This document shows, one piece after another, positions 6,066 to 46,528 of a stretch of 58,521 nucleotides of DNA; the stretch's first letter is position 1; every line of letters starts with the position of its first letter. The notes below the pieces were generated by a model. That model made no database searches. It had not been told where the DNA came from and worked only from the letters and a program-made list of their open reading frames with translations. A program made the translations under genes and the position numbers. This DNA is from Hyphomicrobiales bacterium (lineage in GTDB: Bacteria > Pseudomonadota > Alphaproteobacteria > Rhizobiales > WTKA01): the NCBI GenBank assembly GCA_011524605.1, contig WTKA01000037.1:1-58521 (forward strand), read 5' to 3'.

Positions 6066-6323
6066 AGATAAAATGCTTTGATTGAGATTCTTTACAATAT
6101 ATGCAATATAGCAAAAATGAATGGTAATGAATATGAATTAATCAATTTATACATTGCGACTATATTTTAATTTTAAAAATCAATATTTTCTCACTTAAAG
6201 AAATTTAAAACTGTTTACGTTAAGCTATATATGTTTTAAAAGCATTTTAAATCTATGATATAAAATAATGAAAGTACAGCTTTTATATATCTTATGCTAT
6301 TTTACAAAATTTAGGAGCGTTTT

Positions 6324-29956: not shown

Positions 29957-30910
29957 TCAAATATTTAAAGCAAGTGTTTTTCTTGCTTGATCGCTATCAC
30001 GATCCATCTGTGTAATCAAGGATTCGACACTATCAAAGTCCAATTCAGGTCTTTGCCAATCAATAAGCTCAATCTTTAAGGTCTTGCCATATATTTCGCT
30101 CTTAAAATCAAAAATATGCACTTCAAACAAAGGCTCACCATTATCAAATACCGGACGGCGACCATAGCTTGCGACGCCACCATAGATATTGCCATCATAT
30201 TGAATGCGAACTGCATAGATGCCAAATGCTAAATTCATATCTTTGCGCAAATGCAAGTTAGCCGTGGGATAGCCTAGGTCACGCCCCCGCTTGTCTCCAT
30301 GATAAACTTGCGAAGTGAAAGACCAAAAGCGTCCTAGTAATGCATTTGCTTCTTTTACGCACCCTGTTGACAGCAAATTTCTTATATAAGAAGAGGAAAT
30401 ATCAATTGACTGATCATTTGATAATTTATCTATCGCATTGATTATCACATTATGGGGCTTAGCTAGTCTTTGTAATAAGCTTACATCGCCTTTTCGGCCT
30501 TTTCCAAAATGGAAATCAGTGCCAACAAAAATCTCTCTTGCATTTAATTTTTCAAATAAAACATCTAACACAAAATTTTCAGCCTCTAATTGGCTTAAAG
30601 CAGCATCAAAATCCAATATAATGACTTCATCGATAGCTTGATCTATTAACAGCTGTTTTTTTTCATGAGCAAGTGTTAGTCTTTGCATCGGTGTAGAGGG
30701 GTTGAAAAAAGCCCGGGGATGCGGTTCAAATGTTAATATAGTTGATTTAAGCTCTTTTTGTTTTGATATTTCAACGCATTTTTCCAAAACAGCTTGATGG
30801 CCAAGATGCACGCCATCAAAATTGCCAATCGCAATACATCTGTGTTGTTTTGCATCAACACGATTAGATAAATCATTATATGAATATATATCAAACATAG
30901 CCATCTCCAA
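29957..30910 (-). CDS. ribF: Bifunctional riboflavin kinase / FAD synthetase
   Basis: 317-aa ORF with the FAD-synthetase motif IGNFDGVHLGHQ and a C-terminal riboflavin kinase domain (GYPTANL). It is upstream of ileS as in many bacteria. Confidence 0.9.
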   Translation of the reverse strand: MEMAMFDIYSYNDLSNRVDAKQHRCIAIGNFDGVHLGHQAVLEKCVEISKQKELKSTILTFEPHPRAFFNPSTPMQRLTLAHEKKQLLIDQAIDEVIILDFDAALSQLEAENFVLDVLFEKLNAREIFVGTDFHFGKGRKGDVSLLQRLAKPHNVIINAIDKLSNDQSIDISSSYIRNLLSTGCVKEANALLGRFWSFTSQVYHGDKRGRDLGYPTANLHLRKDMNLAFGIYAVRIQYDGNIYGGVASYGRRPVFDNGEPLFEVHIFDFKSEIYGKTLKIELIDWQRPELDFDSVESLITQMDRDSDQARKTLALNI

Positions 30911-30995: not shown

Positions 30996-31063
30996 CCATG
31001 CATTTTACGCAACGCTGCGCTGCAATAGTAGCACTTAACACAAGCACTAAAAAAGAGTACCCG
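30996..31063 (+). promoter_or_regulatory. Conserved 45-bp upstream box + promoter-like element, copy 1 (degenerate -10)
   Basis: CCATGCATTTTACGCAACGCTGCGCTGCAATAGTAGCACTTAACA ends in a TTAACA -35-like hexamer (31035-31040). Seventeen nt downstream reads TACCCG, a poor -10. Confidence 0.4.
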
Positions 31064-31126
31064 TTCAAGCAAGAAATAACAAATATTATACACATAATGA
31101 TATTATAAAATATCGGAGATATGCAA

Positions 31127-31273
31127 ATGAAAAACTCTTTATTACAATATAAAAAATGGCGTGCTTACAGAAAAAATGTAAATGAACTTTCTGCACTTTC
31201 AAATAAAGATTTACACGATTTAGGCATTAATCGCTATGATATTAAACGAGTTTGTAAACAGTCTGCGTTATAA
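31127..31273 (+). CDS. DUF1127 small protein, copy 1 (48 aa)
   Basis: Hand translation gives MKNSLLQYKKWRAYRKNVNELSALSNKDLHDLGINRYDIKRVCKQSAL. GGAG lies 8 nt upstream of the ATG. It matches the DUF1127 pattern (basic W-R-x-Y-R, L-S-x-L-x-D-L-G-I-x-R-x-D-I) and falls below the ORF-track size cutoff. Confidence 0.8.
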   Translation: MKNSLLQYKKWRAYRKNVNELSALSNKDLHDLGINRYDIKRVCKQSAL

Positions 31274-31297
31274 TTAAAGATTGTTTAGAAGATAGAT

Positions 31298-31373
31298 ATA
31301 TTTGGCTATTATCTCTCCAACCTGTCAAATATTTTTATAAAGACCCTTAGTTTCGGCTGAGGGTTTTTCTTTT
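31298..31373 (+). ncRNA. 3'-UTR two-hairpin module, copy 1 (CcsR/cuckoo-like, loop motifs degenerate) including terminator
   Basis: Hairpin 1 has stem 31298-31306 / 31324-31332 and loop TATTATCTCTCCAACCT. The terminator is CCCTTAG-TTTCGG-CTGAGGG followed by TTTTTCTTTT. The CCUCCUCC motif is eroded to CUCUCC or lost. Confidence 0.5.
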
Positions 31374-31500
31374 ATTGCAAAGTCTATTCAATTGACTATG
31401 CAGCAGCATATTTTTTATTCATAAATAATCATGGTTAAAAGCAGCTATAAAGGTTTGTTAAAAGACTAGAGAAATGCGTTTAGATCAGAAATATTCTAAT

Positions 31501-31568
31501 CCATGCACTTTATGCAATGCTGTGCTGCAATAGTATCACTTAACATATCCATGAAATAAGTTTATAAA
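31501..31568 (+). promoter_or_regulatory. Conserved 45-bp upstream box + sigma70-like promoter, copy 2
   Basis: The box is CCATGCACTTTATGCAATGCTGTGCTGCAATAGTATCACTTAACA. Promoter elements are -35 TTAACA (31540-31545), a 17-nt spacer and -10 TATAAA (31563-31568). Confidence 0.6.
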
Positions 31569-31606
31569 TATAGGCAAGAAACGAAACACGTATCGGAGAT
31601 ATGAAA

Positions 31607-31753
31607 ATGAAAAGCTCATATGGACAATTTAAAAAGTGGCGCACTTATAGAAAGACTGTCAATGAACTTTCAGCGCTTTCAAATAGAGATTTAAACGATT
31701 TAGGCATTCATCGTTGTGATATTAGACGCGTTTGTAAACAGTCAGTGTCATAA
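31607..31753 (+). CDS. DUF1127 small protein, copy 2 (48 aa)
   Basis: Hand translation gives MKSSYGQFKKWRTYRKTVNELSALSNRDLNDLGIHRCDIRRVCKQSVS, with the TATCGGAGAT RBS block upstream. Confidence 0.85.
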   Translation: MKSSYGQFKKWRTYRKTVNELSALSNRDLNDLGIHRCDIRRVCKQSVS

Positions 31754-31777
31754 TATAGTATAATTGTACTAACTTTT

Positions 31778-31858
31778 AGATATTTGACTATTTCCTCCTC
31801 CACTGTCAAATATCTTGATAAGAACCCTTAGCTCCTCCCGCTAAGGGTTTTTCTTTTT
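31778..31858 (+). ncRNA. 3'-UTR two-hairpin module, copy 2 (CcsR/cuckoo-like anti-SD sRNA candidate) including terminator
   Basis: Hairpin 1 has an 11-bp stem AGATATTTGAC / GTCAAATATCT (31778-31788 / 31805-31815) with loop TATTTCCTCCTCCACT. Hairpin 2 is ACCCTTAGC-TCCTCCC-GCTAAGGGT (31824-31848) followed by TTTTCTTTTT. Confidence 0.65.
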
Positions 31859-31950
31859 GTATAGAAGCAATTTAATTATAAAATCACAAAGCCTAAGCAT
31901 GTAAATTCCGACAAACATTAATAATGCGTTAAAAGCATGGAAAATATAAC

Positions 31951-32018
31951 CCATGCATTATTAACAATGCTGCGCTGCAATACCAGCATTTAACATAGGC
32001 GAAAATAGGGTGTATAAG
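31951..32018 (+). promoter_or_regulatory. Conserved 45-bp upstream box + sigma70-like promoter, copy 3
   Basis: The box is CCATGCATTATTAACAATGCTGCGCTGCAATACCAGCATTTAACA. Promoter elements are -35 TTAACA (31990-31995), a 17-nt spacer and -10 TATAAG (32013-32018). Confidence 0.55.
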
Positions 32019-32056
32019 TAAGAACAAGAAATAACAAACATATCGGAGATATGAAA

Positions 32057-32203
32057 ATGAAAAGCCCTTTAGTAAAGTTAAAAAAATGGAAAAATTACAG
32101 AAAGTCTGTAAATGAGCTTTCAGCGCTTTCAAATAAAGATTTAAACGATTTAGGTATTCATCGTTGCGATATTAAACGAGTTTGTAAACAATCAGTCTTA
32201 TAA
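32057..32203 (+). CDS. DUF1127 small protein, copy 3 (48 aa)
   Basis: Hand translation gives MKSPLVKLKKWKNYRKSVNELSALSNKDLNDLGIHRCDIKRVCKQSVL, with the TATCGGAGAT RBS block upstream. Confidence 0.85.
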   Translation: MKSPLVKLKKWKNYRKSVNELSALSNKDLNDLGIHRCDIKRVCKQSVL

Positions 32204-32230
32204 TAGAGATTGTTTAATCAATGACAAAAT

Positions 32231-32306
32231 ATTTGACTACGACCTCCTCCTAACAGTCAAATCTTGATAAGAACCCTCAGGCCCTCCCTTGAGGGTTTTT
32301 CTTTTT
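32231..32306 (+). ncRNA. 3'-UTR two-hairpin module, copy 3 (CcsR/cuckoo-like) including terminator
   Basis: Hairpin 1 has stem ATTTGACT / AGTCAAAT (32231-32238 / 32255-32262) with loop ACGACCTCCTCCTAAC. Hairpin 2 is ACCCTCAGG-CCCTCC-CTTGAGGGT followed by TTTTCTTTTT. Confidence 0.62.
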
Positions 32307-32416
32307 GTATAGAAGCAATTTAATTCATAAACTATAATTATAGCATCAGATAAGCGAAGCTATTATGCAACTTTAAATAACTTTATGAATTGCATTCAAT
32401 TCATCAGATTTATATT

Positions 32417-32484
32417 CCATGCATTTTATGCAATGCTGCACTGCGATAGTATCACTTAACATACACATAGAAAAAGATTATAAA
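32417..32484 (+). promoter_or_regulatory. Conserved 45-bp upstream box + sigma70-like promoter, copy 4
   Basis: The box is CCATGCATTTTATGCAATGCTGCACTGCGATAGTATCACTTAACA. Promoter elements are -35 TTAACA (32456-32461), a 17-nt spacer and -10 TATAAA (32479-32484). Confidence 0.6.
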
Positions 32485-32522
32485 TATAAGTATAGAATGA
32501 AACACATATCGGAGATGTGAAA

Positions 32523-32669
32523 ATGAAAAGCTCTTATGGACAGTTTAAAAAATGGCGCGCTTACAGAAAGACCGTAAATGAACTTTCAGCGCTTTCAAAC
32601 AACAAATTAAACGATTTAGGTATCGATCGTTCTGATATTAAAAGAATTTCAAAACAATCTATTATATAA
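32523..32669 (+). CDS. DUF1127 small protein, copy 4 (48 aa)
   Basis: Hand translation gives MKSSYGQFKKWRAYRKTVNELSALSNNKLNDLGIDRSDIKRISKQSII. The upstream in-frame ATG seen in copies 1-3 is GTG here, which supports the second ATG as the common start. Confidence 0.82.
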   Translation: MKSSYGQFKKWRAYRKTVNELSALSNNKLNDLGIDRSDIKRISKQSII

Positions 32670-32692
32670 TAGATTATTGTTTTACTAGATAT

Positions 32693-32773
32693 AAAATATT
32701 TGGCTATTTCCTCCTCCAACTGTCAAATATTTTAATAAGAACCCTCAGGTCCTCCCCCTGAGGGTTTTCTTTT
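32693..32773 (+). ncRNA. 3'-UTR two-hairpin module, copy 4 (CcsR/cuckoo-like) including terminator
   Basis: Hairpin 1 has a 12-bp stem (32693-32704 / 32722-32733, one G-U) with loop TATTTCCTCCTCCAACT. Hairpin 2 is ACCCTCAGG-TCCTCCC-CCTGAGGGT (32741-32765) followed by TTTCTTTT. Confidence 0.65.
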
Positions 32774-32835
32774 ATTGCAAGCCTGTTCAATTTATGAAAT
32801 ATGGTAACAATATTTTACAAAAGGCGCATATAATC

Positions 32836-34227
32836 ATGACAGGGCAGAAAAAAATCACAATCGTTGGCGCAGGACTTGCCGGTTCAGAAGCAGCATGGCA
32901 AGCAGCAAATCAAGGATGTCATGTTGATTTATATGAAATGCGACCGGTACAAAAAACAGATGTGCATCATACAGACCATTGCGCAGAGCTTGTTTGCTCC
33001 AATTCATTTCGCTCAGATGATGCTCTTAATAATGCCGTAGGTCTTTTGCATGCAGAAATGCGCACATTAGATTCTCTTATCATGCAATGTGCTGATGAGC
33101 ATCAAGTACCAGCAGGCGGCGCTTTGGCGGTTGATCGTGATAATTTCTCAAAAATGGTCACAGAAAAACTAGAATCTCATGAGAATATTCATTTGCATCG
33201 TGAAGAAATCACCGCAATTCCAGACCAAAATAATGGACCTGTCATCCTAGCAACAGGCCCCTTAACTTCAAAAAATCTTACAGCAGAAATTTTACAATTA
33301 ACGGGGCAAGATAGCCTTGCTTTTTTTGATGCAATAGCACCAATTGTTTATTTTGATAGCATTGATATGGATATATGCTGGTTTCAATCACGCTATGACA
33401 AGCCAGGGCCTGGTGGCACAGGGGCTGATTATATCAACTGCCCATTAAATAAAGAGCAATATGAATCGTTGATTGATGCACTCATTGATGGGGAAAAGAC
33501 TGATTTTAAAGAATTTGAAAAAAACACCCCCTATTTTGATGCCTGCTTACCTATTGAGGTCATGGCTGATCGCGGGAGAGAAACCCTTCGCTTTGGCCCT
33601 ATGAAACCAGTAGGTTTAACCAACCCTAATGATCCCGACGGTGATCTCTATGCTGTCGTGCAGCTTCGTCAAGATAATGCGCTCGGCACACTTTATAATA
33701 TGGTTGGTTTTCAAACTAAATTAAAATATGGTGCTCAAAAAGAAGTATTTAAAACAATACCGGGTCTTCAAGAGGCTGAATTTGCGCGTCTTGGCGGCAT
33801 GCATCGAAATACATATATCAATTCACCTGAACTCTTAGATAGCTATCTGAGAGTTAAATCAGCGCCACATATTCGATTTGCAGGGCAAATCACAGGGGTG
33901 GAAGGCTATGTAGAAAGTGCTGCATTAGGTCTTGTTTGTGGACGATTGGCAGCTGACGAAGTTTTAGAACGTGATCTTAAATTGCCTTGTAAAACAACGG
34001 CTCATGGCTCTCTTGTTAATCATATTACTGGTGGGCATTTGTCTGATCCAACAAATGGCATCAAAACTTTCCAGCCGATGAATATCAATTTTGGCCTTAT
34101 GCCTTCTATTGATGTCCCAAGGGAAATAGATGGCAAACGCTTACGAGGCAAAGAAAAAAGCCGCGCTAAAAAGACTTTACAAGCAAAACGTGCTTTAGAA
34201 AATATTATTGCATTTAAAGAAGTCTGA
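32836..34227 (+). CDS. trmFO: Methylenetetrahydrofolate--tRNA-(uracil54-C5)-methyltransferase TrmFO (Gid)
   Basis: FAD fold [16 protein letters not shown] and TrmFO length. The ORF is open from 32794, but that ATG abuts the upstream terminator and the conserved N-terminus begins at MTGQKK (32836). Confidence 0.88.
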
Positions 34228-45079: not shown

Positions 45080-46528
45080 TTATATTTTTGTTGCTTTCAT
45101 CTCTATATCATGTTCACGAATTTTTTTTCGTAAAGTATTCCTATTAATACCTAAAAGAGAGGATGCTTTAATTTGGTTGCCTTTTGTTGCGGATAGAGCC
45201 GCGCTAATTAAAGGCCCTTCTACATCAAAAATAATCTTGTCATATAAACCATCAGGGGGTAATTCTCCCTCATATTGACCAAAATACCAAGCGAGATAAT
45301 TTTCTGCAGCACTTCTTAAATCAGAAACCTGATTACTCTGCAAAGAAATTTCGGTTTCGATATTCTCTTTTTTTATCTCTTGCAAAATCGTAAGACCAGA
45401 AATCTCTTCTTCTGAATGCAACGCAGCCATGCGACGTACTGTATTTTCTAATTCTCTAATATTGCCTGGCCATTCATAGCTTTGCATCTGCTCTATTGCT
45501 TCTTTAGAAAATTTCTTGATAGGCAGCCCTTCTTTATAGCATTGAGACAAAAAATGATCCACAAGGTCTGGAATATCTTCAAGGCGTGTTCTAAGCGGTG
45601 GGAGGTTGATAGGCACAACATTTAATCTGTAGAATAAATCTTCTCTAAACTGCCCCTTATCAATTCTCTTTTTCAAATCTTGGTGTGTCGCAGCAATAAT
45701 CCGTACATTTGCTTTAATAGGTGAACGACCACCAACGGTCGTATACTCTCCCTCTTGCAAAACACGTAATAATCTTGTTTGCGCATCAATTGGCATATCG
45801 CCAATTTCATCTAAAAAGAGCGTTCCCCCTTCGGCCTGTTCAAAGCGCCCTGCTGATCTTGCTTGAGCGCCAGTGAAAGCTCCTTTTTCATGGCCAAATA
45901 ATTCTGACTCAATGAGATCTTTTGGAATAGCTGCCATATTTAAAGCAACAAAAGGCCCGTTTTTCCTTTTGCCAAAATCATGAAGCGCTTTAGCAACAAG
46001 TTCTTTACCCGTACCACTCTCGCCGTAAATAATAACGGTCAACTCTGTATGCATCAGCTTTGCTAAAGTTCTATAGACATTCTGCATTGCCATAGACCGC
46101 CCAACGATAGGCAGCTGATCCTCTTCATCATTTTCGAGTTTTTTCTTTTCCTGCTTTTTCTTGCGCTCTAAAATAGCATTGCCGATAACAGATGTAAGTT
46201 CATTTATATCAAACGGCTTTGGTAAATATTCAAAGGCGCCAGCCTCAGAAGCGCGAATAGCAGTCATAACCGTATTTTCCGCACTCATCACAATGAAAGG
46301 TAGATTTGGCCGTGCTTCTCGAATTTTTGGTAATACGTTGAATATATTTTCATCAGGCAATACAACATCAGTCAGCAAGACATCACCTATGCCTTGCCCA
46401 ATCCAGTTCCACAAAGTAGCTATATGGCTTGTTGCTCTTACCGTATAGCCTGCTCTGGTTAGAGACTGATTTAAAACTGTGCGGATTGTTGTGTCATCTT
46501 CAACAATTAATACTACCGGTTCACTCAT
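45080..46528 (-). CDS. ntrC: Nitrogen regulation protein NtrC (sigma54-dependent response regulator)
   Basis: 482-aa ORF with a receiver domain, Walker A GESGTGKE, an intact GAFTGA loop and a C-terminal Fis-type HTH. Confidence 0.9.

Follow-up and report, generated by a model that had tools for sequence, protein, structure and literature searches.

Four DUF1127 genes between ribF and trmFO

We analysed a contig of a Hyphomicrobiales bacterium (GenBank WTKA01000037.1; its whole length of 58,521 nucleotides is referred to as the window), in which the ~ 1.9 kb spacer between ribF and trmFO contains four open reading frames (ORFs) of 48 codons, all on the + strand. The ORFs encode proteins of the DUF1127 family and are embedded in longer repeated units. 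The spacer is most probably comprised of four tandem, diverged copies of a complete expression module of the ccaF1/CcsR type, or CIN1, in which the DUF1127 ORF is named CcaF1 and its RNAs CcsR; Rhizobiales members of these RNAs are covered by the Rfam family ar14 (PMC8034643). The four ORFs are as follows.

31127-31273, + strand: DUF1127 ORF copy 1, Pfam PF06568 44.6 bits
31607-31753, + strand: DUF1127 ORF copy 2, Pfam PF06568 53.1 bits
32057-32203, + strand: DUF1127 ORF copy 3, Pfam PF06568 41.9 bits
32523-32669, + strand: DUF1127 ORF copy 4, Pfam PF06568 46.2 bits

These genes had been proposed in a first-pass annotation made from the sequence alone, and its coordinates and translations were reproduced letter for letter. 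The family assignment was borne out by the profile search, where the four copies reach 41.9-53.1 bits (E-values 8e-11 to 2.6e-14) against a gathering cutoff of 23.3 bits for PF06568 (DUF1127 / YjiS-like). The annotation had also called the genes hidden. This is appropriate for the length-filtered ORF track, in which the spacer shows a 67-aa antisense ORF (31929-32132, the longest other ORF in the spacer), but standard gene calling on public contigs finds all four. For other, independently assembled contigs of the species, public annotation lists four genes in the 48-aa form, tagged PF06568. Length-filtered ORF tracks overlook regulator families of 40-50 aa, and with them the attached small RNAs.

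The arrangement TATCGGAGAT-N6-ATG, noted previously before every copy, is present in 4/4 ORFs, with GGAG located 8 nt before the start of the 48-aa form. Each copy also has an alternative in-frame ATG or GTG two codons upstream, corresponding to a 50-aa version. The distance of 8 nt from GGAG to the second ATG favours the 48-aa form, in agreement with the public calls. The peptides are basic, as illustrated by copy 2 with 11 K/R and 4 D/E residues. In copies 1-3, residues 17-44 give a sub-threshold Pfam match to the SAM domain-like family SAM_TNK (E ~ 0.05), and a sequence search of the PDB returned no DUF1127 entry. The Brt/Trp RNA-protein family of Bartonella, considered as a possible analogue, was dropped, the peptides being DUF1127.

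Equal length and the lack of indels in the four copies were confirmed, and the earlier hand count for copies 2 and 4 (about 12 synonymous and 10 replacement codon differences) turned out to be exact, at 12 and 10. Constraint on the peptide, also proposed in the annotation, is supported by ratios of replacement to synonymous substitution (dN/dS, Nei-Gojobori) of 0.19-0.46 among the four copies and of 0.06-0.40 between the window copies and the two copies of a sister species described below, copy 1 being the most constrained ORF (0.064 against its sister orthologue). Variable sites in the six sequences from two species are distributed as 17/15/32 over the three codon positions (p=0.017), with roughly twofold more variation at third positions than at either of the other two. 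The number of indels in the six ORF sequences (four from the window and two from the sister species) is 0, and the check for frame-disrupting indels in orthologues, suggested by the annotation, disclosed intact 48-codon ORFs in the sister species. The four ORFs are thereby confirmed as genuine DUF1127 genes, with the peptide under purifying selection.

Cuckoo RNA clusters of Rhodobacteraceae can comprise up to 9 copies without intervening ORFs (PMC4615179), and the array could likewise be looked upon as a small-RNA cluster in which ORFs are decaying remnants or chance frames. This is extremely improbable for four intact ORFs of equal length that score 42-53 bits to DUF1127, each having GGAG at proper spacing, and with intact orthologues in the sister species. 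The dN/dS values of 0.06-0.46, together with the twofold variation at third positions, effectively refute it.

Tandem repeats are often misassembled in metagenomes. In the present case, however, misassembly, or else a single module amplified very recently, has a practically negligible probability, because modules are only 71-83% identical (i.e. they differ by 17-29%) and because the four-module array recurs in two further independent metagenome assemblies, L081 and L082 (98.6-99.7% identity), which makes three in total. In addition, divergence between window modules is as large as between species: the second module of the sister species is closest to window module 4 (83% identity), while window modules 2 and 4 share 82%. 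Module 3 is the most diverged.

The array is flanked by two genes.

29957..30910, - strand: ribF, divergent upstream neighbour (PF06574 FAD_syn, PF01687 Flavokinase)
32794..34227, + strand: trmFO, conserved downstream anchor (PF01134 GIDA)

The public call for ribF is 313 aa long and starts with the ATG at 30898. Homologues of trmFO align from the ATG at 32836, and trmFO begins 18-60 nt past module 4.

The repeated module and its 3' RNA

Alignment of the four periods, each 450-505 bp long, delimits a module of ~ 360 bp in which a 5' box, the ORF and 3' hairpins are conserved. The repeated unit is therefore a composite module (box, promoter, gene, 3' RNA and terminator), not a gene alone. Promoter elements in the list below, in which SD stands for Shine-Dalgarno sequence, are predicted.

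30996..31375, + strand: module 1, box core 31009-31028, GCAACGCTGCGCTGCAATAG
31034-31039 and 31058-31063, + strand: module 1 predicted promoter, -35-like CTTAAC and degenerate -10 TACCCG
31115-31118, + strand: module 1 SD GGAG, in a leader with a ~ 25-nt insertion
31298-31332, + strand: module 1 hairpin 1, loop AUUAUCUCUCCAACC, motif lost
31339-31368, + strand: module 1 terminator hairpin, loop UUUCGG, motif lost
31501..31858, + strand: module 2, box core 31514-31533
31539-31544 and 31563-31568, + strand: module 2 predicted promoter, CTTAAC, 18-nt spacer, TATAAA; inferred transcription start ~ 31575
31595-31598, + strand: module 2 SD
31778-31815, + strand: module 2 hairpin 1, loop UUUCCUCCUCCA
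31820-31852, + strand: module 2 terminator hairpin, loop CUCCUCCC
31951..32306, + strand: module 3, box core 31964-31983, ACAATGCTGCGCTGCAATAC
31989-31994 and 32013-32018, + strand: module 3 predicted promoter, TTTAAC, 18-nt spacer, TATAAG
32045-32048, + strand: module 3 SD
32231-32262, + strand: module 3 hairpin 1, loop with CCUCCUCC
32269-32300, + strand: module 3 terminator hairpin, loop CCCUCCC
32417..32776, + strand: module 4, box core 32430-32449
32455-32460 and 32479-32484, + strand: module 4 predicted promoter, CTTAAC, 18-nt spacer, TATAAA
32511-32514, + strand: module 4 SD
32692-32734, + strand: module 4 hairpin 1, loop UUUCCUCCUCCAA
32738-32768, + strand: module 4 terminator hairpin, loop UCCUCCCC

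Folding of the 3' regions gives two hairpins (z-scores -2.8 to -8.7). Hairpin 1 follows directly after the stop codon and has a stem of 9-13 bp and the loop UUUCCUCCUCC(A). Hairpin 2 is GC-cored, with 12-13 pairs, and continues into a U-run, thus representing an intrinsic terminator in 4/4 modules. Terminator-like sites number 6, against 1.0 expected by chance, and the four strong ones are the modules' own. In the six copies from two species, three base pairs show compensatory changes, and loops are nearly invariant.

Loops of hairpin 1 in modules 2-4 hold CCUCCUCC, equal to 8/9 bases of the anti-Shine-Dalgarno (anti-SD) motif CCUCCUCCC, which cuckoo RNAs carry in each loop of their two to four hairpins, while the loop sequences of module 1, AUCUCUCC and UUUCGG, have lost the anti-SD motif. 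The related sequence CCTCCTCC occurs 4 times in the 58.5-kb window (0.43 expected, ~ 9-fold enrichment), and 3/4 of these sites are in the hairpin-1 loops of modules 2-4. In Rfam, ar14 (RF02344) is the top match for the RNAs of these three modules.

31746-31855, + strand: ar14 match, module 2, 45.6 bits, E 1.2e-6
32205-32303, + strand: ar14 match, module 3, 31.7 bits, E 0.0014
32657-32772, + strand: ar14 match, module 4, 45.1 bits, E 1.5e-6

The Rfam scan gave no ar14 match in module 1 and no match to CcsR1 anywhere in the window. Pairing in cis of the 3' anti-SD loops with the SD of their own module was also considered and rejected; it is absent from minimum free energy and centroid folds of the full predicted transcripts.

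The SD surroundings are palindromic (AUAUC-GGA-GAUAU at 31589-31603, 32039-32053 and 32505-32519, and also at 31109-31123). In folds of predicted transcripts, GGAG falls within a small hairpin of 5-6 bp, where it occupies the loop and the 3' arm. In unit 4 (GAUGUG) and in the second unit of the sister species (CUUAUC..GAAGUG), this hairpin is kept via wobble or shifted pairs. The palindrome hairpin may be a translational control element.

Two differences were observed in the additional assemblies. In L081 (~ 6131-6155, corresponding to window position 31737), a 24-nt tandem duplication, ACAGTCAGTGTCATAATATAGTAT, extends across the stop codon of copy 2; because the stop is kept in the first repeat, the duplication leaves the peptide as it was and lengthens only the 3' leader of the small RNA. 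In L082 (2558-3658, from window position 32745 onward), the sequence diverges inside the terminator hairpin of module 4 and runs on into a gene with a KilA-N domain (81 bits) in place of trmFO. Either a mobile element was inserted at this terminator or the contig is chimeric.

A panel of 80 Hyphomicrobiales/alphaproteobacterial trmFO loci, obtained in a TrmFO search of genome contigs, served for comparison (62-67% relatives; all counts from the panel are among the matches listed, which included no closely related orthologous array). At the homologous position in relatives, ar14 scores are 95 and 90 bits in Mesorhizobium and 63.3 bits in L086, a more distant relative in which a three-hairpin ar14 RNA comes after a single 46-aa gene. 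In Roseibium aggregatum (L052), the order is gene, ar14 (63.4 bits), gene, ar14 (58.6 bits), trmFO. The gathering cutoff is passed by L021, L086 and the first copy of L052, the second copy of which stays just below it (58.6 vs 58.8 bits). Clusters of CCTCCTCC are found 3' of the gene in Mesorhizobium, Phyllobacterium and Brucella, and 5' of the gene in Rhizobium and Sinorhizobium.

These data bear on the alternative in which the spacer holds four independently expressed DUF1127 paralogues, with 3' hairpins acting only as terminators or stabilisers and C/U-rich loops without a role in trans; this corresponds to the reading of the first-pass annotation. Such an explanation agrees with the ORF being the best-conserved segment in some module pairs, with ar14 scores under the gathering cutoff, and with the ORF of module 1, which is constrained after motif loss and indicates that the protein can stand alone. 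We nevertheless regard it as unlikely. Hairpin 1 is unneeded for termination, yet it exists in 6/6 copies, shows compensatory changes and has a loop, UUUCCUCCUCC, that hardly varies, and a CCUCC-type motif appears again in the terminator loops of modules 2-4. Furthermore, RNAs at the orthologous position of relatives are bona fide ar14, and the ~ 9-fold enrichment of CCTCCTCC, with most sites in these very loops, speaks for the composite CIN1-type module.

Related loci, upstream box and history of the array

In 65/80 panel loci, 1-2 DUF1127 ORFs are located directly upstream of trmFO on the same strand, and among the matches listed, 0 of 80 loci have more than two. Proteins encoded next to trmFO in the panel are 46-50 aa long and ~ 50-60% identical to the window copies. 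A search of metagenome contigs with the DUF1127 alignment added 7 distant loci, holding either a single copy or two. A word-indexed protein search with the four copies returned 10 proteins, two of which (P0003 and P0006) led to the two-module sister species (L084). Its TrmFO is 95% identical, while all other TrmFO sequences among 5.8 billion proteins are at most 69% identical. In the sister species, the ribF-trmFO spacer contains two modules with intact 48-codon ORFs, boxes and CCUCCUCC loops. Rarity of the copy number was judged from the 80 species-representative loci, the 7 metagenome loci and this one sister species. The first-pass annotation had considered a fourfold array in which every copy has its own signals unusual. 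Predicted upstream signals, terminators and the copy number agree with that view, but the arrangement itself does not, since Roseibium and the sister species each have two alternating gene and RNA modules; the unusual feature is thus the copy number of four.

Upstream of each gene, ~ 90-118 nt from the ATG, there is a conserved block, CCATGCAttttatGCAATGCTGCGCTGCAATAGTAGCACTTAACA, and its 20-nt box core has only these four sites in the window. The block reaches ~ 45 nt upstream of the -35 element. It is followed by a promoter-like pair, CTTAAC and TATAAA/TATAAG with an 18-nt spacer, which would imply a leader of ~ 32 nt; with the inferred start near 31575, the block spans ~ -74 to -49. A sigma-54 promoter, suggested by the TGCA...TGCA appearance of the box, was rejected by inspection, as the spacing of elements misfits GG-N10-GC.

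The published VtlR/LsrB box is GCAT-N3-TG-N3-T (PMC7486931), and the Brucella VtlR motif is CAATGCAGCCATGCA (PMC12595884). In 28/65 listed loci, the DUF1127 gene next to trmFO (the first one where there are two) has a strict GCAT-N3-TG-N3-T at -150 to -85, compared to 0.94% of control windows. According to a box-anchored alignment, the window block is homologous to that region (GCATTGCTGCCATGCAGCCATAGCGCTTTTAA in Mesorhizobium, GCAATGCTGCGCTGCAATAGTAGCACTTAA in the window), and relatives have a -10 of the CTATCT/ATATAT type at the distance where the window has TATAAA. The best window match to the Brucella 15-mer is CAACGCAGCCATGCG, with 2 mismatches, at 45419-45433 (+), inside an ORF of 482 aa on the minus strand (45080-46528), and is probably due to chance.

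With respect to the regulatory step only, a stress sigma factor of the RpoHI/RpoHII type could drive the modules in place of an LsrB/VtlR-type activator. The CcsR/CIN1 loci of Rhodobacter and Sinorhizobium are heat- and stress-induced, with RpoH dependence reported or proposed (PMC8034643), and CTTAAC is a poor sigma-70 hexamer that resembles the CTTG-type -35. We find this option rather doubtful, considering that the conserved block extends ~ 45 nt upstream of the -35 and can be aligned to the LsrB/VtlR-box region in other Hyphomicrobiales. Binding and activation have moreover been shown for LsrB at the ar14 RNA NfeR1 (PMC10746234) and for VtlR at trmFO-type DUF1127 genes of Brucella and Agrobacterium (PMC7486931, PMC12595884). 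Sigma-factor and activator control are in any case not mutually exclusive.

Among the modules, module 1 is informative. The first module of the sister species keeps the anti-SD motifs, the -10 and an uninterrupted leader, all of which are altered in window module 1. Module 1 looks protein-only because its ORF is the most constrained, yet the motifs are lost, the -10 is degenerate and the leader carries a 25-nt insertion. The number of modules changes between sister species, two versus four.

Some similarities cross module boundaries. The spacer after module 1 (TTATTGCAAAGTCTATTCAATTGAC, 31369-31400) resembles the trmFO leader after module 4 (TTATTGCAAGCCTGTTCAATTTATG, 32769-32800), and the spacers after modules 2 and 3 (31853-31880 and 32301-32330) share a different sequence, GTATAGAAGCAATTTAATT. 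These resemblances hint that spacers may reflect the order and boundaries of duplications. Copy 2 has a mosaic look. It shares the N-terminus, MKSSYGQFKKW, with copy 4 and the second copy of the sister species, and the C-terminus, RVCKQSV, with copies 1 and 3 as well as the sister species' first copy. Synonymous divergence (dS) between the first copies of the two species, which are positional orthologues, is 1.44, compared to 0.44-0.76 between window paralogues (with only ~ 29 synonymous sites). The mosaic and the dS pattern suggest that recombination or gene conversion may have acted within the array.

Proposed mode of action and relation to known systems

In the CIN1 neighbourhood, a DUF1127 (OG1) ORF is located next to cuckoo RNAs and is often, in Rhizobiales families, flanked by a tRNA methyltransferase, OG7 (PMC4615179), which is presumably trmFO. 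In the window, the ar14-like RNA adjoins the DUF1127 ORF of modules 2-4 from the stop codon, and the trmFO flank is present. CcaF1 binds RNA and affects the maturation of CcsR from its own 3' untranslated region (PMC8034643). Loop motifs of CcsR1-4 and NfeR1 pair with ribosome-binding sites of targets and block translation (PMC8034643, PMC10746234). Binding of LsrB at -72 to -57 activates NfeR1 (ar14) in Sinorhizobium meliloti, an RNA whose redundant anti-SD loops bring about target silencing (PMC10746234). In Brucella and Agrobacterium, VtlR is a direct activator of DUF1127 genes (PMC12595884, PMC7486931), and small DUF1127 proteins bind PhoR (PMC12501420).

On this basis, each module would be transcribed from its own activator-dependent promoter, composed of an LsrB/VtlR-type box, a weak -35, an 18-nt spacer and a -10. 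The transcript of ~ 285 nt would serve as mRNA for the basic 48-aa DUF1127 protein and carry, as its 3' part, an RNA of ~ 100 nt with two hairpins. The loops of both would expose CCUCCUCC-type anti-SD motifs, the second hairpin doubling as the intrinsic terminator. Either processed or within the mRNA, the 3' RNA may pair with target ribosome-binding sites and cause silencing, by analogy with CcsR1-4 and NfeR1. The DUF1127 protein could be a CcaF1-like RNA-binding factor that tunes maturation or stability of such RNAs or, alternatively, a partner of a PhoR-type sensor kinase, as in Agrobacterium. Four modules would multiply dose and allow divergence, and module 1 would now be protein-only. The array may have grown from a two-module state, or the sister species may have shrunk to one. 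Module anatomy, homologies and coding constraint are directly observed; LsrB/VtlR control, expression and RNA processing of the modules, and the functional part throughout, we infer, and the current picture of the ccaF1/CcsR system is unchanged.

Several observations weigh against this reading. The ar14 scores of modules 2-4 are all under the gathering cutoff of 58.8 bits, the loop motif is CCUCCUCC or CUCCUCCC and not the canonical CCUCCUCCC, and window RNAs have two hairpins while three are typical of Rhizobiales; the hairpins could be nothing more than terminators and a stabilising stem. Compared to the VtlR consensus, window boxes have one mismatch in units 1, 2 and 4 (GCAA for GCAT) and two in unit 3. 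When up to 3 mismatches are allowed, the Brucella 15-mer has 6 sites in the window where 3.8 are expected, which is no enrichment, and the assignment of the LsrB/VtlR box therefore rests on positional homology and not on a motif match. A generic sigma-70 scan of the region gave 10 sites, with 11.3 expected, which is not better than shuffled sequences, and for this reason the promoter proposal rests on homology with other genomes. No LysR-type gene was detected among the 10 mid-sized ORFs scanned in the 58.5-kb window. Promoters, transcription starts, RNA processing and translation of the modules are predictions only.

A further-reaching proposal, which we put forward tentatively and consider rather improbable as a whole, is that a CIN1 module expanded into four autonomous protein and RNA modules that became sub-functionalised. 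Module 1 would be protein-only and modules 2-4 dual-function, with diverged peptides and seed contexts, possibly offsetting the loss of dispersed DUF1127/cuckoo paralogues present in larger genomes. If true, the array would represent a natural dissection of the protein and RNA roles in the ccaF1/CcsR system.

Apart from this proposal, strong constraint on the module 1 protein after loss of the anti-SD motifs argues for a role of the DUF1127 protein independent of its own 3' RNA, and bears on the question of what DUF1127 proteins act upon, RNA as in the case of CcaF1 or protein partners like PhoR. The locus also indicates that CIN1 can grow by duplicating the entire promoter-gene-RNA unit and not the RNA alone.

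Among known systems, ccaF1-ccsR1-4 of Rhodobacter (Cereibacter) sphaeroides (RSP_6037) is similar in having a small DUF1127 gene whose transcript also contains, further downstream, two-hairpin RNAs with CCUCCUCCC-type loops (PMC8034643). Its last hairpin is likewise the terminator, and RNA copies are also four in number. In R. sphaeroides, however, one gene and one promoter serve four RNAs, whereas in the window the whole unit is present four times, with four genes, each in a predicted transcription unit of its own. At 71 aa, CcaF1 of strain 2.4.1 is longer than the window proteins (48 aa), and the ccaF1-ccsR promoter is RpoHI/HII-dependent.

The S. meliloti locus of NfeR1/alpha-r14 (RF02344) and SMc02051/SMc02052 shares with the window the CIN1 neighbourhood, trmFO-type flanks, DUF1127 proteins (47 aa) and RNAs with anti-SD loops (PMC10746234, PMC8034643). 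An LsrB box there precedes a weak sigma-70-type promoter (CTTAGAC-N17-CTATAT), comparable to the putative box and the predicted CTTAAC-N18-TATAAA in the window. Its RNAs differ in having three hairpins, their own promoter and a position upstream of the DUF1127 genes, while RNAs in the window have two hairpins, are located 3' of the gene and score only 32-46 bits to ar14. The number of DUF1127 genes is two in S. meliloti and four in the window.

DUF1127 proteins of Brucella (BAB1_0914, BAB2_0512 and BAB2_0574) and Agrobacterium (Atu1667/SDPs) are similarly basic, 46-48 aa long and ~ 50-60% identical (PMC12595884, PMC7486931, PMC12501420). Identity of window copies to the trmFO-adjacent Agrobacterium proteins is ~ 55-60% over the aligned ~ 38 residues. 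A GCAT-N3-TG-N3-T-type box is located upstream of these genes at a similar distance, with GCAA for GCAT in the window. Their paralogues are dispersed or at most paired, in contrast to four in tandem in the window.

The same arrangement is seen in R. aggregatum, Roseibium sp. (L031) and the sister species, in which gene, ar14-type RNA, gene and ar14-type RNA alternate upstream of trmFO. They have two modules compared to four in the window, and the first RNA of Roseibium has three motif-bearing hairpins. The host of the array appears to belong to a deep-branching, poorly sampled and so far uncultured lineage of Hyphomicrobiales with ~ 38% GC, represented only by metagenome or host-associated assemblies. 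In this low-GC lineage, the window RNAs are AT-rich two-hairpin variants below the Rfam threshold. A DUF1127 gene with cuckoo RNA upstream of trmFO is already known; what is new is duplication of the whole module, which is present four times, more than in all of the 80+ loci compared.

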